A stretch of 64,000 bases of DNA from Cladosporium halotolerans (taxonomy: Eukaryota). Position numbers and translations under genes: made by a program. The stretch's first letter is position 1; the number at the start of each line of letters is the position of its first letter. The stretch spans positions 1 through 64,000 of the forward strand of contig NW_027191474.1 in assembly GCF_011745625.1 (NCBI RefSeq). Reading direction: 5' to 3'. Under the pieces are notes generated by a model, which saw nothing but the letters and a program-made list of their open reading frames with translations, had not been told where the DNA came from and did no database searches. Positions 37,846 to 50,343 of this stretch are shown in pieces.

Positions 37846-38931
37846 TCAACGAGCAGTCAGCATGCCCGTATCCTCATGACAGCCAACATACTCAAGGTCC
37901 TGCTGCTCGGGCGTCAACACTAAGACCTCGTGAAACAACCTCAGCTGAAGATTGTTCTCCAACTCTTTGGCATACTGGTGGAACCTTCCAAAAATAGCGA
38001 GATGCGTCCTGTGCTTCTTGCTCCAAGCCTCGAGAGACGCGATATCGTCGAAGTAGCCCAGCCCGAACGTCTTCTCCATGCACCGGGAGGCGTCATCCGC
38101 ATCGATAACCTCCATGAACCGGTTGCTGAAGCATCCAGTCTCAGAGCCCTGATGCGTCAGGTATTCCATGCCTTTGATGAGCACTGGATGCATTGTCGTG
38201 AGGTACAACTCGCGTTCATGCGCATCCGTCCCAGACCAATCCTGGCCGGAGCGGATTATGGCCAAGTTCCGCCTGCCGGGAACTCGGATGCGCTGCGACC
38301 TTGTGTCCGTCACTTCGTCAACAGCGCTACGCTGATCATGATTGCCAACCAGAAGATCTGTCTGCGAGATAGGTAGCCGATCTCTCATGCTGCCCCAATA
38401 AACATGCTCTTGCAGCTCTCTGCTGACGCTTTCGCGCATGTGTGCAACGCCCTCGGGCACTTCGTTGTCTGAAAAGATGTTCTCAAACCTATCGATCGAG
38501 GGCGAGAAGGCTTCGCGGAACCAGCCGACGTCGCCATCAGGCTTGAGATCATCCCAGAAGGCGGCAAAACCGCTTTCAGCGAGCCAGGCTTCGTAGTCGG
38601 AAGGCGTCGCCCAGTAGGCGATGGCGGCGATGTTGTGGTAGCCTCGCTTGTCGATTACGGAGGACAGGTCCCAGTGCTTGGGAACAACATCGCCAACTTG
38701 CTGTCGCATGAAGCCAACGAGCTTCTTCTGGCAGTCCTCGAATCTAGAGTCTCGATCTTTGCTCTGGAACCCGATGACCGCTATCACTACGCCGTCGGCG
38801 CTTTTCGAAAATCTGGCGGCATAGGCAGGGAACGGCGGATGGTAGTCTGGAGGCAACCTCGACGGCAGCGTCCTCTCCGTCCTCAGGTGTTCGGGGATCG
38901 CTGGTTCGAGCACACTTTCATGCAGCGCCAT
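37846..38931 (-). CDS. oxd: Aldoxime dehydratase (heme-containing, phenylacetaldoxime dehydratase-like), 361 aa, intronless
   Basis: Oxd motifs YWGSMRDR, IRSGQDWS, HRTHLAIF (proximal His) and LRLFHEV (distal His), plus C-terminal EYVGCHEDTGML. Confidence 0.93.
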   Translation of the reverse strand: MALHESVLEPAIPEHLRTERTLPSRLPPDYHPPFPAYAARFSKSADGVVIAVIGFQSKDRDSRFEDCQKKLVGFMRQQVGDVVPKHWDLSSVIDKRGYHNIAAIAYWATPSDYEAWLAESGFAAFWDDLKPDGDVGWFREAFSPSIDRFENIFSDNEVPEGVAHMRESVSRELQEHVYWGSMRDRLPISQTDLLVGNHDQRSAVDEVTDTRSQRIRVPGRRNLAIIRSGQDWSGTDAHERELYLTTMHPVLIKGMEYLTHQGSETGCFSNRFMEVIDADDASRCMEKTFGLGYFDDIASLEAWSKKHRTHLAIFGRFHQYAKELENNLQLRLFHEVLVLTPEQQDLEYVGCHEDTGMLTAR

Positions 38932-39139
38932 CGCCACAATTCCGGCTTGTCTGAGTGCAAGGCGAATTGGACCTGCGCTCTGCCGAGGAGAAAAACCGAG
39001 CTTCAGGTTTCATGGCGCCTCCAGCAATCTGTTACGTACTTATCTTCAAGGACTTCTAACAACAATCTTTGCGCCTCCTACTGATGGTAAGGTGATATGG
39101 TGCACACGGTTGCGCCACCGAACGATGTGCAAGAAGACT

Positions 39140-39558: not shown

Positions 39559-40725
39559 ATGGTTGCGTCTACCAACATTGTTCGCGTTGCCGTCTCTCAA
39601 CATGAGCCTGCGTGGCTCGACCTAGCTGAAGCTGTACGGAAGACGTGTGCCATCATCAAAGAGGCGTCTGAAGCTGGTGCGAAGCTTGTCGCTTTCCCGG
39701 AGTGCTGGATACCTGGTATGTCTCTTGATCGTTTACAAGTGCGCTGGGATGCTGTCCAGTGAGATACTTGGCCGAATGGAGCTAATATAATGTCACTGCA
39801 GGCTACCCGGCATGGATATGGTAACAGTTCACAGCGGTAAACTTGACAAGAATCTCGAGCTGACCATGATGAGGACTCGACCGGTTGACTTTGACCTCGG
39901 TGTCAAATACGTGCAGAACTGCCTTAGCGTCAAGAGCCCCGAGTTTGCAGCCATTCAAGCTGCCGCAGCAGAACACCAGATTGCCGTGTCTCTCGGTTTC
40001 TCGGAACGAGATGGAGAGAGCGTCTACATATCGCAAGCTCTCGTTTCTGCTGACGGCGTCCTCGCCATGAAACGCCGTAAAATGAAACCCACACACATGG
40101 AGCGGACGATTTTCGGCGATGCGACAGGCGGGGAGTGCTTGGCTGCTCCGGTAGATGTACCAGATGTCGGAAAAGTCGGCAGTCTCAGCTGCTGGGAGCA
40201 CATCCAGCCGTTACTCAAGTTCTGGACGTTCTCGCAGGGCGAGCAGATCCACGTCGCTGCTTGGCCGCCGTTAGATTCTTTCGCGAATGGCTCGCCCGGC
40301 TTCTACTCCATGAGCGATGAGGGCTGCTTGACGACGGCGAAGGTGTATGCCATCGAGAGCCAAACATTCGTCTTACACTGTGGCGCCTTGCTGACAAAGC
40401 CGGGCCTCGAGCTGATGGGTACCGTGGGAAGCCCGCTCATGGGCGCTACCGCGGTTGGCAAGTCGGCGATCTTGGGACCCGATGGTCGCTTGCTGGCGAC
40501 TACCAAAACAGGCGGAGAAGAGCTTCTCGTCGCTGATCTCGACTTGTCGCTGATCACCAAGACAAAGACTTTTGCTGATGCCTCCGGTCACTGTGAGTCT
40601 TTCCTTGTCTCAGCTTTCGCCAACCTCGTTCTGACTCGAGCCCAGATAGTAGACCCGACATGCTCTGGTTGGGCGCCGATCCCACTCAGAGACCGGTTGT
40701 TCGAACGGCAGCGGGAGGCTCTTGA
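39559..40725 (+). CDS. Nitrilase (arylacetonitrilase-like), 324 aa, 4 exons
   Basis: Exons 39559-39715, 39802-39820, 39874-40592, 40646-40725. Catalytic triad motifs [21 protein letters not shown] and LSCWEH, plus C-terminal GHYSRPD. Confidence 0.95.
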
Positions 40726-40860: not shown

Positions 40861-43778
40861 CTAGAACCTCCCCGTGTTGCGCAGATTACGGTCCGCTTCT
40901 CGCCATTCTTCGAGCCAGCGTCGGCGCTTGATCGTGTCCGGATGTTCCGGCCCAAGTACATCCACAGAGACCGATAAAGTACCCTCCATCAGTAGGAGTG
41001 CGTCTTCCCTGTTGCCAAGGTCAAAGACTATGTCGGCGAGCAGCCACATTCGACGAAGAGACTCGGGGTGCTTATCACCGAGTTGCTCATTGTAACCATG
41101 TACCACCTCCAATTGGAGCTTCCGAGCTTGCAGGTGACGTTTCTGAGTCCAGTAGATTGATGCCAATTCGGATATCACGCTCAATGTCATCAAATCGTTG
41201 TCGCCAAATATCGTCCGACGGCGATCGATGACATCCATGTACAGCTCCTCAGCATCAGAAAGCCTGCGCATTCCACTGTAGACGCGAGCAAGCCTGCATG
41301 TGCTATCGACCGTCGACGGATGGCCGATTCCGTAATTGTCCTTGTGAATCTGGAGTATCTCCAACTCCAACGAGGCGGCCTTCTCAAATTGCCCGACGGA
41401 GCAATAGATATCACCGAGCGTTGACATGTAATACAACGTCTGCGGGTTGGTTGCCCCAAACATGTCTTTGATCTTTTCCACTACAAGGGCTTGCAGAGCC
41501 TCCGCCTCCTCGAAACGTTCCTGGTACGTGTATATGCTCGCAAGCGCGGTCTGTCCATCCAGGAGAAGTTGATGCGATTCGCCAACGACAGACTTGTACA
41601 TACCAACAACCTTGACTTGCAACCGCTCGGCTTCTTTCAATCGACCACTATATTGCAGTGTTCGTGCGAGATCCTGCATGCACATAAGGGTGCCGACATC
41701 TTTCTCGCCTGCTACCTCCTTCATTTTCTTGCAGACGAGTCGGGAAAATGCTTCCGACTCATTCCAGCGATTTCGTTGCCTGAGAACGCGGGCATAGTCG
41801 CTGAGAAATGCCAGAGTTATCTTGTGAGAGCGCCCAAGCCCCGTCTTACTCTTCTGATAAACCGCAAATCGCAGAGCTTCGGCCTCGGCCATGCGATTCT
41901 GATTGCTGTAGATTCTTGCCAGCCGAGATTCTCTGCTTAAGGTGACATAGTGGCTCTCTCCAAGGCTCCGCTGGGCGTTATTGATCGCGCGCACTTGCAG
42001 CAGCTCCGCTTGTTCCCACAATCCTTGCTCGAGCTTGACCACGGATAGCGTCTCCAGACAATCGGTAGCCTCGAGGCTCTCAGCGCCATGCTGTCCTTCT
42101 CGAGCCGCGAGGGAACACAGCAGCATCTCTTCAGCATCCGTAAAAAGCCCCTTGTGCCTAGCATACTCTGCGCTCCAAAAAAGCAGGGAAGCTTTCCTGA
42201 GGATGAAGTGGCGGTCTTCCGAATTCTCTTCGACCGCTCGTTTCGCGTGCGGGAAGAGCGGTTGGAATTGGAACCATTCCATGGCCCGGAACCCAGAAAA
42301 GGCTTTCTCAAGGTTTGCAACGAAGCGGAATCTCCATTTCTCGAGTTCCGCTTCGTTTTTCTCTAGCCATGTCCGTGTTGCTACCTGTACCAGTCGGTGC
42401 ATTCCAAAGCTGGAAGGTTCAGTTGTAGAGTGGATGAATGCATAGTCTCGTAGCATGCTGATGTCGTCTTCAAAATCGTCGTCGGCCGGCGAAGGAGCGT
42501 AGGGTGATGGCATATGCTTTGCAGAACTCGTGCTTGCGCCGTTTGGAGGCTCTGCCAAATAGCCGCTGACTTTTGGGACCCATTCTTCCTCCTTGCCATA
42601 CCCCCGATCTTCGAGTAGTGCTTTTGGCATTCCTTGCCTGTCAAAAAAGCTCATGAGGGATAGCAAGTCTGCAGCAGACGGCCTCAAGCTGCTAATGTGA
42701 TCAAAAGAGACTTCCCATGTTCGGATGATTGAGTTGCTAGCGTCCCTATCCCGTCGCAAATCTCCCTCATCCCGTCTTAACAGCCTGGTGCCCGATGGGT
42801 TATTTGCCTCTAATCTTCTGATGTAATCTTGAATCGAACAAAGGGGAGCACGGTGATTGATGTACGCGGCTGCCTGAACCATAGCGAGAGGCATGAAGTC
42901 AAGCGAGTTTGCCAAACGTATCAGATCCTCGCTCTGCTGAGGCTCTTCCAGCTTCTTGCTAAGCAGGGCTTCTGCAAGGTCTTCCCCCATTGGCTGTATA
43001 CCAACTACGTTCCGCCTCTCTGCAAGCTGTGTCGCTATTCCTTTGCTCCTGGAGGTGATAAGCGTGGTCCCCTGGCTACAGAATGGGAAATAGTCTATAC
43101 GTCGTTGCAGGCAGTGACTGTGGGAGCTTCCCGACTGTTCGGGAGTTGAAGGGAAGCCCAAAAGAACATCCGCATTGTCGACGTTGTCCAGAACAACGAG
43201 CCAGGGATTCTCCTTTGTATGCCGCAACCAATCTCGGAGAAGCATGAATGCGTCGACTTTCGGATCGTTGCGTCCCCGGACTTTGAGTTGGTTCAATAAG
43301 TCGCGGACGCTCTGCTCCAAGCGTGGCGCCGTACTGGCATGCAGCCATAGCACCCAAGTGTTTGGTGAGCTTTCTCTGATCCAGTAGGCGTATTGAATAG
43401 CGAGTTGCGATTTGCTGCAGACAATCAGCGCATGCAACACTTGCTGTCGTCCATGCTGATGGTTTCACCCAACGCCGCCCAAACCGACTAATGCAACACG
43501 CGCCGCCGGCGCCTTCAACTTCGTTCGGATTGCATCGAAAGCTGGGTGATGCACGTAGTCTGGGTCTTTGGTAAACGGGACCGTAGAGAACGGTTCAGGT
43601 GGAACCTCGTGCTGGTCTAGAGTCGGATAGGTGTTAGAATCATGCAAGAACGAAGTGAGCTCCGTGGCTTGTTACCAAAAGCATTATGATATTGAACATT
43701 GATGGGTCCAAAATTCTGTCCAACTTCGACGCCTAAATTGCCAGAGCCAAAGTTGATCTCAGTCCTTCCGCTGTCCAT
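40861..43778 (-). CDS. Fungal NLR (STAND): N-terminal PP-type amyloid motif + NB-ARC + TPR repeats (PNT1-like), 934 aa, 3 exons
   Basis: Exons 43778-43676, 43616-43469, 43414-40861, joined by canonical 59- and 54-nt introns. N-terminus MDSGRTEINFGSGNLGVEVGQNFGPINV. P-loop GLGGVGKSQLA spans intron 2. Walker B WLVVLDNVD, MPLAMVQAAAYI, MHRLVQ, and about 10 kinesin-light-chain-type TPRs (LGxxHxxTL pattern). Confidence 0.93.
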
Positions 43779-44148
43779 GTCGCACAAAGAAGACCCCTGC
43801 AGCCGACCCTGGCCAGATGGAATTACAAACGGAGAGTCCAGCGCTTGGAGCAGTGTAGAAATGTTGTGAATCGTCTTTGACGACTAGGCGATCCGGCTCA
43901 ATAGCACGCAGGAAGGTTGTCATTAGGGTTCCGAGTCTTAGTACTCCGCTTCCTGGTGGCGTGAGCAAAACGCAGCTGAGAATCTGGATCGTGCACGGAG
44001 TTGGTGGCTTGCAGCTTGGAGCTTGGAGGAAAGCTGACCTAAAGCTGAACGAGTGACCTGTCAGGCGAGATACAAAATAGTCGCAGTCGCCAACATTTGT
44101 TAGATCGATTCTCCGCCGCTTGCGCGATGGGATCAAGGCTCGCCCAAT
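43779..44148. promoter_or_regulatory. 370-bp putative bidirectional promoter shared by the NLR and the HeLo-like effector
   Basis: The two ATGs (43778 minus, 44149 plus) face away from each other with no room for another gene. Confidence 0.55.
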
Positions 44149-45067
44149 ATGGCAGAAACACTGGCCACAGCTGCTGCAATAGTGGGACTCATTGTGCCCA
44201 CACTTCACGGTATACGACTGCTGACAGACGATCTCAACAATGTCATCAACGCTCCTAGAGTCATCCAGAGGCTCACAGACGAGCTTCAGTCCGTGCATCT
44301 GAGCGTTGCGTGCCTAAAGGAGATCGACGAGGCGCAGTGGAAAGCCTTGGGTGAGAAAGTCGCAGAGCAATCGAAGAGAGCTCTAACGACTTGTACGAAG
44401 GCTTGCGACGAGGTGCGAGGCGACCTCCAGCGCTGGACCAGGCGCTCGAAAGATGGGCAAAGATCATGGCGAGAGCGGGCCAACGTTGGCTTCTTCAAGG
44501 AGAAGCGCATAACAGCCATGTTGGAGCAATTGCAAAGCTGCAAGATCTCTTTGAATACAGTCGCAAGTACTGCGAGCTTGTAAGTGCACGAAAAGACCAC
44601 CCTTTTTTGGATGTGGCAGCACGCTGACGGATTACAGCCATAGCTCGACCCGCAATTTCCGCAGCACTGAAGATTTGAAGGCGCAGCTCCTCGCCCGGCA
44701 GCAAGAAATGAACGAGATTGCTGTCGTCGCCGACGGACAAGCGACAAGTGTCGAACAGTCCCTCGGTGTGTTGCGCATCGCGGAGAAGCCGGAAGAGCAA
44801 CCCGGGAGCCGGGCCGAGAATCCCGAAGATCTCGAGGAGGACATTGAAGGCGCTGAAATGGCCATGGAGGACGAGCTATTGACATTGAAAGCGTTGCGCG
44901 GACTTATGGAGGAGTTGAAGGCAAGCATCGCGCTGACGAAGGTGGAAGGAAACGCTCCGCCAAAGGCCGGCTCAGTCCAGGTGAACTTCGGAGATCATAA
45001 CCATGGTGCGCAATTTGGAACTAACCATGGGCCGATTGGTGGTATCCAAATTGGCCAGAGGGGATGA
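44149..45067 (+). CDS. HeLo-like (HELL) cell-death effector with C-terminal PP amyloid motif (HELLP-like), 286 aa, 2 exons
   Basis: Intron 44580-44637 (GTAAGT...GCTGAC...CAG) joins ORFs 44149 and 44675. Hydrophobic N-helix MAETLATAAAIVGLIV and helical HeLo-like domain (NAPRVIQRLTDEL, CTKACDE, SWRERA). C-terminus VNFGDHNHGAQFGTNHGPIGGIQIGQRG. Confidence 0.9.
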
Positions 45068-45292
45068 ATTAGGATTATGGAGACGGAAATAGGGAGGAAA
45101 AGTAGGAGCTTTGATGAGTAAGATGTGCAATCATCGAACGTCTTTGCCAAGACTTTCGGGATTAAGCTTAGCGACCTTGACGAACCGTATCAAGACATCA
45201 CATTGTGCCAGAAGAGATTGTCTTTCTTGTATTGTGGAGACGAAAACCCGCCCGTTCACTCATGGTGGTCTTCCATGTCTGTACTCTTCAGT

Positions 45293-46351
45293 CTACTTCA
45301 CAACAGATGTAGGAGCAGGCGTAGCAAGCGCCACAGGTGTCATGTAGTACTGATCTTGCGTCTCCCTGCATCCGGCATTTTTCCACTCCTCTTCGAGATT
45401 CAGAATCTCCGTAGGTAAGGGAATAATGGGCGTGTAAGATCCTTGAATAGTCTTACATGCATCGTCAAATCGGCGGCACGACCTCTGCCTGTCCCAAGCG
45501 CTGGTCGGCACGGTATTGAGATCCGCGAAGTTAAAGCTGTAACTGGTACCGATCGAATAGCCGGCACTGTAGAAAGGCTCGGTGATGGGCACGATGAAGC
45601 TGGTATGGGCGGGCGGGCCACATTGGGTTCGCTGCGGGCGCCGACCGTGGAGCACGGCGGAGACGCCGTCAAAGGAGAGGTAGTTTGTTGGACTGGTGAA
45701 TGTGTAGCCGTCGATGACAGCTGTGTTGGGTTTCGGAGGACTGGTTGGCTCGGCGAAGACGGTGGAGCCATTCTGGGCGCAGAAGTCGCCAGACACCGTC
45801 GTTACGGGCCAGTAGTAGAGAGTCTTCTGGTTGCCGCCATAGATGAAGCAATAATCCGGATTGAGGCTGCAGGGAACGTATGAAGATGTTTGTGTGCAGT
45901 GTGGCTGGTCTGTCGGGCTGGGACCTTCGCCTGCAGAGTAAGTTGACAGCGCGGAAGACCACGAAGAAAGGATCGGTGTGCACGCAGTCTCGGCTATGGT
46001 GCAAGTCGGAGAGGGACCGGTGTACTCGACGGCATAGGTGGCAGTCTGTGGCGGGTCAAATGTTTCGGTGACCACATAAGTGGTGTCGGGATAGTCGCCG
46101 ATCAGTCTAGGCCTGCCGTCGCACAAAAAGGTCGTCAGCAGCGGGCTAGTCGTGATCACGTCGACGACAGTCCGGACGTAGGTGGAAGTGACCTCTGTCG
46201 TCCATGTCTGCTCACGGGTTTCCAAGAAAGTGTCGTGAGCTTGCAGAGAGGATAAGCATTCGAAGTCGTCCTCATTTGGATCCGCTGCAGGTAAAGCTGA
46301 TGTAGATAGGGCAAACGCCACAAGGTTCAAAACCGCCCTGTTGCTCAACAT
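45293..46351 (-). CDS. Secreted Cys/Thr-rich protein of unknown function, 352 aa
   Basis: Signal peptide MLSNRAVLNLVAFALSTSA, about 12 Cys, T-rich, with CFIYGG...LYYWP and FTSPTNYLSF motifs. Confidence 0.8.
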   Translation of the reverse strand: MLSNRAVLNLVAFALSTSALPAADPNEDDFECLSSLQAHDTFLETREQTWTTEVTSTYVRTVVDVITTSPLLTTFLCDGRPRLIGDYPDTTYVVTETFDPPQTATYAVEYTGPSPTCTIAETACTPILSSWSSALSTYSAGEGPSPTDQPHCTQTSSYVPCSLNPDYCFIYGGNQKTLYYWPVTTVSGDFCAQNGSTVFAEPTSPPKPNTAVIDGYTFTSPTNYLSFDGVSAVLHGRRPQRTQCGPPAHTSFIVPITEPFYSAGYSIGTSYSFNFADLNTVPTSAWDRQRSCRRFDDACKTIQGSYTPIIPLPTEILNLEEEWKNAGCRETQDQYYMTPVALATPAPTSVVK

Positions 46352-47426
46352 GATGCCAGACGTTACTTGAATATACCTGGTTGATGGACCTCCTTTCTGA
46401 AGCTTCGGTTGGGTCCTTCTTATACATACACTCTGCGACCCGTCTGATGACGGTCTAGCCCTCAGACCCGCTGAGGCGGACTCCGCAACATCAGCGTGCC
46501 TTGGAGAAATACGAACTGGCAGAATTATGTATGCAGCTGAGCCTCAATATATTGCATTACGAGCCCACACGAAACCTTTCTTTTGGGGTCTGAGCCCAAA
46601 AACGGCACGGAAGGATTTCTCGGCGGCAATGCGCCTGCCCAAAGCCGCTAGCGCTCGGTTACTCGTGAATACATTAAATACATTTCACTGCGGGTGATCC
46701 GATGGTTTGTGCATAGCGTCCTGAGAGACCATGCATGTCTTGTAACCGAGGCCATCTATGCCGAATGAAAGCGCAGGCGTGTTCCCCAAAGCGGGAAAGA
46801 GGCTCGGATCTTGGCCTTGTGGACGGTTCGTGCATTCATCCATAATAAAGCTGAAGCGTCAGCAAAAGGCTTCAGCATGCCCCAGAAGACTGGAAGTACA
46901 ATTAATCCAACCACGATGGTTGTCGACTGGATGATGGTCTTGCTCGGTGTCAGCTCCCAGCCACTTGTCCCTCTGCCGAGATCGGCGAGCCGGAAAGCGA
47001 GCAAACGCCGAGATGTGCCCATCACGACGACGGCAGTAGTCAAATGGCCAAACTGCCATGGCCCAGCACGATTCGAGCCGGAAAGCGTGGCGCATCCTAC
47101 ATTATTGACTTGCACATCTCCTCCGGCATAGTCGCTGATTTTCAAACAGTGCCAGCATGTAGCTTGAAGAAAAAGGATCCCACCGTCACTCATCCAGCCT
47201 CAGCGGCGAGAACTCTGCAGTCCGGCTCCTCATCTTCATTGGAGATTGTGCACGAACATGTACAGTTATCGTTTCAAAAAAGGCTACCCTAGGTATACAC
47301 TTCCGCCAATTCACAGCCTTTCAAACTCCAAACCCCAAAAGGAAAACCCTACCAGACGCCAAGCATTTCCTACAAAACACACTGCGTATGCCAGTCGTAA
47401 TCATTAAATCATCAAACACCAGACCC

Positions 47427-48608
47427 TCACGAAACAACCGCGTCCTGATTCCCCATCGCCTTCCAAGGCTGCACAGCCGTCAGATCTAGCCCGCTGAGAC
47501 TCGCATAGTCAGTCATGAAATCCGAGCGGTCGAAGCCAATGCCGCTCGTCAGGCGGCGTTTCCAGATGCGCGGTTCACGGCCAGGAGTAGTCTTGCCTTG
47601 CGTAGGCGAGGGCTCTTGTGTCAAAGCAGTCGGCTGGACGAATAGAGGCGCGGGATCGTAGGAGGTGAGGTCGAGGCCTTGGCCGATGCTTTTGTCGGAG
47701 AGGAGCTGTGTCCAGTCTGGCGAGAAGAGCTGCGGGTCGGAGAAGAGGGGTGGGATGGCGGTTGGGGAGGGAAGAGTGGTCGAGGTTGTGTCTGAGGACA
47801 AAGGCTGCAACGCCGGTGGCTCCGTGGGAATTGTGAGAGCCGGTGGCGGTGAGGGCTGGGAGGGTGCTTGCTGAGCAGCTAGTGGTCTGAGAGGTCTTTG
47901 GTCTGGTTGCGCTGGTTTCGGCAGCAGCTGTGGTGGCGACGATGTAATGGGATCCCGGGAAGAACCTTTTGTCATCGACGAAGAGAAGGATTGAGAAGTA
48001 CCTGCTTTCTGCTGGGAGGCGGGCGACGTAGAACGGCTTTGCTCCGAGTCGCTAGCAGAGCGTCGACGCTTCCTCTGCGGAGAGCTGTCGTAAGCAGAGT
48101 CGGAGTGTGGCGCGTCTTGGAGGTCTTCGAAAGACTCCATCTCACCACTTCCGTCGTTCTTGGGCTCCAGTAAGTCCAATGCCGCGAGAATATCATGGGT
48201 GAGGGGTGGCGAGCCGTGATGGTCTAACGGCTGACCCTCCCAAGCTGACGCTTTGCGCATCCTGCTGTACATCTCTTGGATGGCAGCCACGAGTTGCGCT
48301 TGTTGACGCTCGAGCATCTCTGCGTAGCCCTTCGGATGGCTTCTGTTGCTCATACGCTTGCCCTCGCTGTGGGAAGTCAGCAGAGGAACGCAAATAGACG
48401 GTTGCGGAGAACTCGCGCACCTGAAAAAACAAACAACATTGTCAACTTTGCAGCGAGAGCACGGATATGCTCCGTCGCACTTCCCCTTCTTCAGCCGACA
48501 TCTGTCGCAGGCTTTCCGCACCCGCTTCCGGATGGCTTCTACACTGCTGCTGGAAGACGTCGAGCTCAAAGAGGGCTTGTTCCACTCTACCGAAGCAGGA
48601 GTCGACAT
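47427..48608 (-). CDS. Zn(II)2Cys6 transcription factor (Fcr1-like short type), 375 aa, 2 exons
   Basis: RKACDRCRLKKGKCDGAYPCSRCKVDNVVC, then KGYAEMLERQQAQLVAAIQEMY and LTHDILAALDL. 54-nt intron 48420-48367. Confidence 0.92.
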   Translation of the reverse strand: MSTPASVEWNKPSLSSTSSSSSVEAIRKRVRKACDRCRLKKGKCDGAYPCSRCKVDNVVCFFRCASSPQPSICVPLLTSHSEGKRMSNRSHPKGYAEMLERQQAQLVAAIQEMYSRMRKASAWEGQPLDHHGSPPLTHDILAALDLLEPKNDGSGEMESFEDLQDAPHSDSAYDSSPQRKRRRSASDSEQSRSTSPASQQKAGTSQSFSSSMTKGSSRDPITSSPPQLLPKPAQPDQRPLRPLAAQQAPSQPSPPPALTIPTEPPALQPLSSDTTSTTLPSPTAIPPLFSDPQLFSPDWTQLLSDKSIGQGLDLTSYDPAPLFVQPTALTQEPSPTQGKTTPGREPRIWKRRLTSGIGFDRSDFMTDYASLSGLDLTAVQPWKAMGNQDAVVS

Positions 48609-50343
48609 TTTGGTTCCAGATCCTGCGAGGGCGTGGCAGTCAAGATACGTCTGCAAATGCCTGATGTAGAGATCGGTATTGGGTATGGAATATTGGACTG
48701 ATGCAGCGAGGAAACACAGAGGAAAGGGAAGTACAGACCAATGGGTCATATAGAGTCAATCGTCAGCCCTCCCAAGCACAATTTGACCAGGGATGGAGTG
48801 CGCCGCGGACTTTGGGCCGGACCAAATAGCGCAACGATGCCCCAACTACCTGATCGGTCACCAACCCTCGACGGATGGGTGAAAAGCTCAAAGCTGAGCC
48901 AGGATCTCCACCCCATGCGAATAAGTCGTCACACAATCATGACATAAGAATGCGGCCGACTTTGCCGTGCACGTGTCTGGGCTGCTAGCTTGGGCTGGGG
49001 AAGCAGAAGTAGTGCCATCCGCGCAGGTAAAGACTAGCGACGAAGTGCCGACGGCCATTGCGTCGCGACAGCCGTTGAATTTCGAAACACACGTATTCCC
49101 GGCGCTGTTTGTGCGATGCTGCCGATTGGTTGGTGGCACACTCGCATCGGCAGGTCGCCCAGGCCCGCGAGGTCAACGAAAGGTGTTTGCGCCGGCGAGC
49201 ATGTGACTGTTCTGAAGCCCAAGACCGAGCGTCAGTTGAGGCTTTGCATTCTCCTTCAGGAGAAATTGTTGGCCCAAACACCGTCTTTCGCACTGTCTCT
49301 CTCGATCCATGGATATACTGTGTTTCGACCGTTCCACTCAGCTTGGGTAGATCACTGATTGAGAAGATGGCGTGGAGCCGCATAACCTTCGGAGCTGGCT
49401 GCGAAACGTCCAACCCGCTAGGCAAGGATGCAGAAAGAAGACACGCATCCACCGGGTGGGTAGGGGAGAGAGCTCCATTGGCGAATGGAAAGGATTGAGT
49501 AGGCGGAGCAGTCTCCGCGAGAGCACTTCGGTTCGCTCAAGCTTTGCTAGGGATCGAGTCAGCGAGGAGAACGAAGGTGCAAGCGACCGGGGGTGGGCTT
49601 GAGTCCGCTCGCGTACACGGTTTGTCGGAGGCTCGGACTCGAGCCCGGATTACCTCGGCCGCTTTGCCATGTATGCCCCATGCTGATCTTGAGAATTTTG
49701 ATCGATATTTGTGGGGAGGACGGACTCGTCTCCGCGGTAATGCTCAATGCTCCCTCTTGTAATTTGGGTCCAGAGCGCGAAGAGCCGTTGGGTCCTGCAG
49801 CAGCGTCGAGCAAACCGCTTGATCGGTCGATGCAAGCCTCTGACGTCGCGAGGAGAAAAGCCCAATTGGTGCTGGATGTGAGGTTAGCTGTGGCATCCTC
49901 TTGCTAATTAGCTTTGGCATTACGGGCGACATGCTGGTACCGTGCTGCAGGATGGCTCGCTAACCCCAGAACGTGCGTCAAGTTCGCCATCATAGTGGAC
50001 TCCCAAAGCGGCAGTGAACTCTGTTCTGGCGGGCAGAACTGCGGTCGCTGTGGCTCGATGTCACGCCAACCGGAAACCCACAGTCAAGGATCGCTTCTCA
50101 GCTTGAAGGCACCGCGGGGCGACGGGCAAGAGGGAGCCTCGACCCTTTGAACGCAGATGACGACCCGCAGCCTGTATAGCCGCTCAGGCGTTCGGATCCT
50201 TTCTTAAGCTGGGGTGCAAAACCAGCCTCTGTCTTATCCTTGACTTGCACTTTCTCCATCGACCATTCTTCGGCTATTCGCTTTTGTGAACCCTACAGCA
50301 AATAATACACTGGCCCATTGGCCCTTCAACAACGGCATCAGCC

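Follow-up and report, generated by a model that had tools for sequence, protein, structure and literature searches.

A probable PP-motif amyloid signalosome of the PNT1/HELLP type, formed by divergent NLR and HeLo-like effector genes, in the Dothideomycete Cladosporium halotolerans

Background

The question addressed here is whether two divergent genes of the Dothideomycete Cladosporium halotolerans encode a NOD-like receptor (NLR) and a cell-death effector that communicate through an amyloid motif common to both. The genes lie in a stretch of 64,000 nucleotides, referred to below as the window, that corresponds to positions 1-64,000 of the forward strand of contig NW_027191474.1 in NCBI RefSeq assembly GCF_011745625.1. 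The initial annotation of this DNA had described an NLR that carries a pseudo-palindromic (PP) motif at its N terminus, ahead of a nucleotide-binding and oligomerisation domain (NOD) and tetratricopeptide repeats (TPRs), and, divergent from it, a HeLo-like effector whose C terminus also carries a PP motif. This architecture is supported by matches to Pfam family PF17111, by TPR matches and by recurrence in relatives. The locus is very probably a PP-motif amyloid signalosome of two genes, one for the NLR and one for its effector, and is similar in type to PNT1/HELLP. It is a fresh example of a gene-pair type that is already described and widespread in fungi, with an architecture that a specialist would expect.

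Gene models and database records

The NLR gene occupies the minus strand and has three exons, with its ATG at 43778, its stop codon at 40861-40863 and a spliced product of 934 aa. The effector gene, on the plus strand, has two exons, an ATG at 44149 and a spliced product of 286 aa. All three introns are canonical GT..AG introns with branch sites (CTGAC in the effector), and the reading frames run on across them. The separation of 370 bp that had been given for the two divergent genes was reproduced. Their parts, in order of position, are:

40861..43414, minus strand: NLR exon 3, encoding the remainder of the NOD, DUF7779, the TPRs and the stop codon
43415..43468, minus strand: NLR intron 2, 54 nt, GTGAAA...CTGAT...GCAG, a GT..AG intron interrupting the P-loop after GVG and before KS
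43469..43616, minus strand: NLR exon 2, 148 nt, encoding a linker and the first part of the P-loop (GLGGVG)
43617..43675, minus strand: NLR intron 1, 59 nt, GTAACA...CTAAC...CTAG, a GT..AG intron with a CTAAC branch site
43676..43778, minus strand: NLR exon 1, 103 nt (34 codons plus 1 nt), encoding Met1-Phe34 including the PP motif
43779..44148, unstranded: divergent intergenic region shared by both genes, 370 bp between the NLR ATG (43778) and the effector ATG (44149)
44149..44579, plus strand: effector exon 1, 431 nt, encoding a HeLo-like (PF17111) helical domain with a hydrophobic N-terminal helix
44580..44637, plus strand: effector intron, 58 nt, GTAAGT...CTGAC...CAG
44638..45067, plus strand: effector exon 2, encoding an acidic helical linker and then a Gly/Asn/Gln-rich tail, and including the stop codon

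The spliced NLR model is letter for letter the same as an NCBI protein of 934 aa (P0009), 'hypothetical protein WHR41_06554 [Cladosporium halotolerans]'. The 103-nt first exon, said initially to have been missed, is therefore absent from the plain list of open reading frames, but not from the public annotation, which already includes it. Fourteen of the 16 sequences in an alignment of the NLR family (A3) have the motif, a linker ending in E-x-P-P-x-P, a P-F-x-x-D-P-D-[FY] block and the P-loop in the same order; of the two exceptions, one is N-terminally truncated and the other is without part of the linker. The intron positions are also conserved: when the NLR was compared by tblastn with related metagenome contigs, the alignments broke at the same two protein positions as the introns of the window, with gaps of 43-95 nt that have GTAAG or GTGAG starts and CTAAC/CTGAC-type branch sites. 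Gaps at the position of intron 1 were found in loci L002, L004, L014 and L022, and gaps at the position of intron 2 in L023, L026/L027, L028, L035 and L037/L038.

Exon 1 of the effector aligns without gaps to residues 1-136 of an annotated 277-aa protein of Cadophora (P0003), with which both exons are colinear; the alignment of exon 2 starts with its first residue at residue 145 of P0003. The nearest full-length relatives, which are 45-55% identical, come from Leotiomycetes and from metagenomes. Many metagenomic gene calls of the effector family (P0129-P0144 and others) are 144-aa stubs that end exactly at the exon 1 boundary, which fits a conserved intron read as a stop. No protein identical to the effector was found in a collection of 5.8 billion proteins (candidates of 252-2000 aa and of 78-251 aa), and the gene is therefore probably unannotated in public protein sets. 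With the effector apparently absent from those sets and many of its relatives present as stubs, catalogues of fungal cell-death effectors are probably undercounted. The guess that the pair would be misannotated, as a kinesin-light-chain/TPR protein and a hypothetical protein, was only partly right: relatives of the NLR are indeed named putative kinesin, TPR-like protein or Nephrocystin-3, whereas the NLR itself carries the correct exons as a hypothetical protein and the effector was not found at all.

Two minor points were noted on these records and on the intergenic region. The 144-aa stubs were cut by gene callers that ignore introns, so that the PP tail is lost from the record, and one NLR entry (P0010) likewise starts inside intron 2 of its own gene. 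In the intergenic region, a 7-bp unit, GCTTGGA, is repeated 3.1 times at 44007-44028, and inspection by eye found an out-of-frame ATG at 44127-44129 (plus strand), 22 nt 5' of the effector start, that would open a short upstream reading frame in the 5' leader.

A motif common to receptor and effector

The N terminus of the NLR and the C terminus of the effector contain the following segments:

43701..43757, minus strand: NLR-side PP-type motif INFGSGNLGVEVGQNFGPI, residues 8-26, with the core N-L-G-V-E-V-G-Q-N
44981..45037, plus strand: effector-side PP motif VNFGDHNHGAQFGTNHGPI, with the core N-H-G-A-Q-F-G-T-N
45041..45055, plus strand: second, downstream G-I-Q-I-G segment, a RHIM-type core directly 3' of the effector PP motif

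The ungapped match of 10 in 19 residues (53%) to which the initial annotation had drawn attention was reproduced, and it is not a product of chance. None of 200,000 composition-preserving shuffles reached 10 identities (the maximum was 9), and when all 19-mers of the translated window (six frames) are compared, the two motifs are each other's best non-self match, the next best having 8 and 7 identities. Apart from these two motifs, the pattern N.G.[QENH].G.N is absent from all six frames of the window, and no third PP motif, such as that of an SBP-like lipase, was found there.

The published core of PP motifs is NxGxQxGxN, and published motifs mostly start at positions 5-9 (PMC9815663); their G-phi-Q-phi-G centre is common to RHIM (PMC7885112; bioRxiv 10.1101/2020.01.06.895854). 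The effector core fits this consensus exactly, and the NLR core fits it except for Glu in place of the central Gln (Glu18, codon 43725-43727, minus strand). In the effector, VNFGDHNHGAQFGTNHGPI is followed by GGIQIGQRG and ends 9 residues ahead of the stop codon; of the effector tails in the proteins and loci examined, this is the only one found with a second G.Q.G downstream of the PP core. PF17046 (Ses_B), the Pfam model of the PP motif (bioRxiv 10.1101/2020.01.06.895854), is the sole Pfam family to match either peptide, albeit below its cut-off.

Such motifs are typical of both protein families. A precomputed PF17046 match is present in 10 of 120 listed NLR homologues, and N.G.[QENH].G is found within the first 80 residues in 46 of them, those without the motif being often N-terminally truncated gene calls. 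Among effector relatives of 250-330 aa, 18 of 43 have N.G.[QE].G in the tail and 24 of 43 have G.[QE].G.

Domains of the receptor

Behind the motif and its linker, the NLR has three domains or regions:

42946..43500, minus strand: NOD/P-loop NTPase module, residues ~74-240 as computed from the model, spanning intron 2
42352..42696, minus strand: DUF7779 (PF25000), residues 324-438, 31.4 bits against a cut-off of 27
40993..41925, minus strand: TPR sensor region, residues ~581-891, with TPR_10 at 166-168 bits (9 stretches) and TPR_12 at 144-145 bits

The NLR contains GLGGVGKS (Walker A), LVVLDNVD within WLVVLDNVD (Walker B), FMPLAMVQAAAY and MHRLVQ, all of them in conserved columns of alignment A3. 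FMPLA and MHR we take to be the GLPL-like and MHD-like motifs of an NLR NB-ARC domain. The NOD points to the NB-ARC type, an assignment that is ambiguous on the protein itself, because homologues at 42-47% identity exceed the NB-ARC cut-off (P0051 with 41.9 bits, P0107 with 36.3 bits), because PF00931 is annotated on many of the listed homologues, and because a profile of 16 homologues, searched against the PDB, finds ZAR1 (8.6e-5), Sr35 (0.014) and Apaf-1 (0.34). No NACHT protein was among the 28 matches listed for that profile. A search of the TPR-coding DNA (40993..41925) for tandem DNA repeats found none.

The effector domain and its structure models

The N-domain of the effector matches PF17111 over residues 2-136 with 43.2 bits (cut-off 27.2, E 3.8e-11), which bears out the HeLo-like assignment made at the outset. 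This family is listed as Helo_like_N, the HeLo-like domain, in the literature on fungal NLRs (PMC9815663); the Pfam copy used here names it PigL_N (formerly Helo_like_N). It was found in all 38 close effector relatives among the matches listed, with the exception of P0158. A hydrophobic N-terminal helix had also been predicted, and the most hydrophobic 19-residue windows on the Kyte-Doolittle scale (1.63-1.73) do begin at residues 1-8.

An AlphaFold2 (AF2) model of exon 1, computed from a 71-sequence alignment, is an all-helical bundle (pLDDT 83.8, pTM 0.77) with helices at residues 2-30, 37-56, 61-67, 69-102, 108-114 and 118-142. The top 50 of 48,161 chains aligned to this model by VIA-align include the coiled-coil (CC) domain of Rx (Z 10.4, root-mean-square deviation (rmsd) 3.4, 104 residues aligned), MLKL (6ux8, Z 9.6; 4btf, Z 9.6, rmsd 2.6, 99 residues aligned), the CC-R domain of NRG1 (Z 9.1) and AtMLKL3 (Z 7.7), although a VIA-align Z below about 13 does not discriminate among helical bundles. 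HET-S HeLo was absent from the best 50 matches of the exon 1 model and of the P0003 model, which does not exclude a likeness. A sequence profile of the N-domain gave weak coiled-coil matches in the PDB, for example to the CC of MLA10 at E 0.0086.

The full-length model of the homologue P0003 (pLDDT 81.7) is helical to about residue 242, and fold searches with it were equally unspecific. The ~35 residues at its C terminus, PP motif included, are modelled as coil (pLDDT 53-63), which is what a natively unfolded prion-forming tail would be expected to show.

Conserved layout in relatives

Metagenome contigs were scanned with a 15-sequence alignment of the effector N-domain, which gave 55 loci, six of them partial matches (L050-L055) that are excluded from the counts below; the same scan with the closest full-length effector homologue (P0001) as query found no relative. 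Nineteen loci have at least 1200 bp of sequence upstream of the effector, and in 15 of these tblastn found an NLR match upstream on the opposite strand. The other four comprise one locus with the NLR downstream on the same strand (L006:6001-8173) and three without an NLR match. Twelve loci combine a minus-strand PP motif, ~230-430 bp upstream of where the effector starts, with one on the plus strand that lies ~400 bp past exon 1. These motif counts use a strict pattern, because a relaxed regular expression falsely matched segments of the helical linker. L007/L008, L026/L027 and L037/L038 are near-duplicates, and the numbers of independent loci are accordingly smaller. Both the divergent arrangement and the positions of the two motifs within it recur in relatives.

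Proposed mechanism and comparison with known systems

According to the model published for HET-S/NWD2, HELLF/FNT1 and HELLP/PNT1 (PMC7885112), a ligand bound by the TPR part of the NLR would let the NOD oligomerise, and the N-terminal PP motifs thereby gathered would seed a cross-beta fold. The homologous motif at the C terminus of the 286-aa effector would adopt this fold by templating. Once the tail had been converted, the HeLo-like helical domain would be set free, and its hydrophobic N-terminal helix would penetrate the plasma membrane, leading to cell death. Relocation of the effector to the membrane and killing upon its meeting with an aggregated NLR motif are reported for proteins of P. 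anserina and C. globosum only (PMC7885112). By analogy with this work on Podospora and Chaetomium, amyloid formation, oligomerisation, templating, membrane attack, killing and a role in immunity or allorecognition would be expected of the Cladosporium pair.

Among known systems, PNT1/HELLP of P. anserina (Bardin et al. 2021, PMC7885112), also a two-gene cluster, is the most similar. Both have an NLR with TPRs and a PP motif at the N terminus, and an effector of ~270-290 aa with a HeLo-like N-domain and a C-terminal PP motif; the NOD is of the NB-ARC type in PNT1 and probably so in the Cladosporium NLR. The identity between the Cladosporium motifs is in or above the range of 32-48% quoted for working PP pairs (PMC7885112). 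The TPR-coding DNA of Cladosporium is without tandem repeats, whereas repeat numbers in pnt1 vary between isolates (PMC7885112). The Cladosporium pair differs further in that its host belongs to another class (Dothideomycetes), its receptor core has Glu rather than Gln, and its effector tail has an additional GIQIG.

Next in likeness is a cluster of Chaetomium globosum, CgPNT1/CgHELLP/CgSBP, reportedly the subject of Daskalov et al. in 2016. There too, a PP motif is common to an NB-ARC/TPR NLR and an adjoining HeLo-like effector (PMC7885112, PMC5485727), but the cluster has a third gene, for the PP-tagged lipase SBP, which has no counterpart among the PP motifs of the window.

The NWD2/HET-S and FNT1/HELLF systems of P. 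anserina follow the same logic, in that an amyloid motif at the N terminus of the NLR templates the C-terminal prion-forming domain of an adjoining HeLo or HeLo-like pore-former. They differ in using HET-s/HRAM motifs, which are 21-residue repeats present twice on the effector; moreover, NWD2 is a NACHT/WD protein and the HET-S domain is PF14479, not PF17111.

In mammalian necroptosis (RIPK1/RIPK3-MLKL), RHIM has a G-(I/V)-Q-(I/V)-G core (PMC7885112), of which the effector tail contains a literal example, GIQIG. The model of the effector N-domain aligns to the four-helix bundle (4HB) of MLKL (Z 9.6, rmsd 2.6 over 99 residues) no better than to unrelated bundles, and RHIM connects kinases that act upstream of MLKL instead of residing on the executioner. 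Bacterial Bell/BASS3-NLR pairs (Dyrka et al. 2020, bioRxiv 10.1101/2020.01.06.895854) similarly consist of an adjoining NLR and small membrane-targeting effector with a common short G-phi-Q-phi-G motif, but they are prokaryotic, with a Bell domain and another motif consensus.

Contrary observations and alternative explanations

Several observations weigh against the interpretation of the locus as an intact PP-motif signalosome, and they concern its gene models, its domains and its motifs. Splice junctions were sought in the contigs of four sequencing runs and none joins across any intron, a result that is no proof either way. Contigs of X2, whose kind is not on record, continue unspliced through NLR intron 1 and the effector intron, and coverage by contigs from RNA libraries is confined to stretches of the effector exons and of the intergenic region (X9, 44127-44424 and 44695-45100; X13, 43967-44185).

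With regard to the domains, NB-ARC (PF00931) scores 20.6 bits on the NLR itself, under the Pfam cut-off of 23.5, and NACHT scores slightly higher, with 23.2 bits, which is also under its own cut-off of 26.7. Of the NB-ARC domain and TPRs that had been assigned initially, the TPRs are strongly matched and GLGGVGKS and WLVVLDNVD are present, whereas NB-ARC is assigned through homologues and the PDB profile. Unrelated helical bundles reach the same VIA-align Z as MLKL and Rx-CC when aligned to the effector model, and Foldseek found no match in the PDB at E <= 0.001 for the exon 1 model or for the full-length P0003 model. Thus, in the comparison of the effector with the MLKL 4HB and HET-S HeLo that the initial annotation had proposed, MLKL does align but neither HeLo nor MLKL is singled out.

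As for the motifs, PF17046 scores 16.8 bits (E 0.0064) on the NLR peptide and 17.5 bits (E 0.0039) on the effector peptide, against a cut-off of 23.2, which the homologue P0001, with 22.0 bits, also fails to reach. Lastly, the charge of Glu18 in the predicted amyloid core could weaken templating.

The unusual cores could be features of a system that works differently. On this view, which is unlikely, the pair may form a PP system of a variant kind in which the amyloid chemistry is altered, with a charged Glu in the receptor core, where Gln is otherwise nearly invariant, and two consecutive GxQxG cores (GAQFG, GIQIG) in the effector. Such a combination could give a two-rung or RHIM-like heteromeric amyloid. 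Protonation or charge pairing of the Glu ladder might, for example, gate its nucleation, and its specificity might be orthogonal to that of the many PP-tagged NLR paralogues in Cladosporium.

It is quite unlikely that the pair descends from a PP signalosome and has lost signalling, either because the change from Gln to Glu (GVEVG) blocks nucleation or templating or because the effector is an inactive variant resembling HET-s, so that the locus is a relic or has been put to another use. Such a loss would agree with the sub-threshold Pfam scores of both motifs and with the rarity of the charged residue: of 47 homologous NLR N termini that have N.G.x.G, 43 carry Q at the central position, three carry E and one carries V, and all minus-strand motifs found upstream of effectors in the related loci have Q. 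Against it, Glu is recurrent as well as rare, being present in the full-length NLRs P0078 and P0122, and it is so tolerated in evolution; moreover, the identity of 53% between the motifs exceeds the range quoted for working PP pairs (PMC7885112). The description of the pair as intact and complete was borne out at the level of sequence, with frames open over 934 and 286 codons and with splice signals, P-loop and Walker B preserved. Every sequence part that the published model requires appears to be present, open and conserved in the pair.

A partnership that is not exclusive, in which the receptor mainly or additionally drives other PP-tagged proteins encoded outside this locus (for example an SBP-like lipase, as in Chaetomium) or the effector answers to another NLR, is very unlikely. 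One NLR of C. globosum does control two effectors (PMC7885112; PMC5485727), and related Cladosporium genomes contain numerous PP-tagged NLR paralogues; against this stand the lack of a third PP motif in the window and the head-to-head linkage that is kept in 15 of the 19 informative loci.

Both peptides are compositionally biased and score under the Pfam cut-off, but the idea that two Gly/Asn-rich low-complexity stretches resemble each other by chance, in neighbouring genes with unrelated functions, is extremely improbable in view of the shuffles, the reciprocal best matches and the recurrence of the same pair of motifs at the same positions in 12 related loci.

As a probable signalosome of the PNT1/HELLP type, the locus brings a clean and seemingly intact PP-motif pair of NLR and HeLo-like effector from Cladosporium, in the Dothideomycetes, to a field in which functional work has so far concerned two Sordariomycetes. 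No link of Cladosporium with HeLo-like proteins or amyloid signalling was found in the literature searched, and the genus is not mentioned in the papers on amyloid signalling that were listed there. The natural Gln-to-Glu core and the extra GIQIG are ready-made test cases for the determinants of PP/RHIM amyloid specificity.

Neighbouring genes

The 3' end of the NLR gene is adjoined by a divergent pair of genes, for a haem-containing aldoxime dehydratase (37849-39009, minus strand; PF13816, E 6.5e-106) and a nitrilase-type CN hydrolase (39791 to ~40730, plus strand; PF00795, E 2.1e-32). Inspection by eye places an intron of the nitrilase gene near 40592-40645 and the end of the gene ~130 bp short of the NLR stop codon. 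The two predicted enzymes make this a putative fungal pathway pair for conversion of aldoxime to nitrile to acid. On the other side, the downstream neighbours of the effector gene are an open frame of 416 codons with no Pfam match (45296-46543, minus strand) and a gene for a Zn(2)-Cys(6) transcription factor (47430-48755, minus strand; PF00172).

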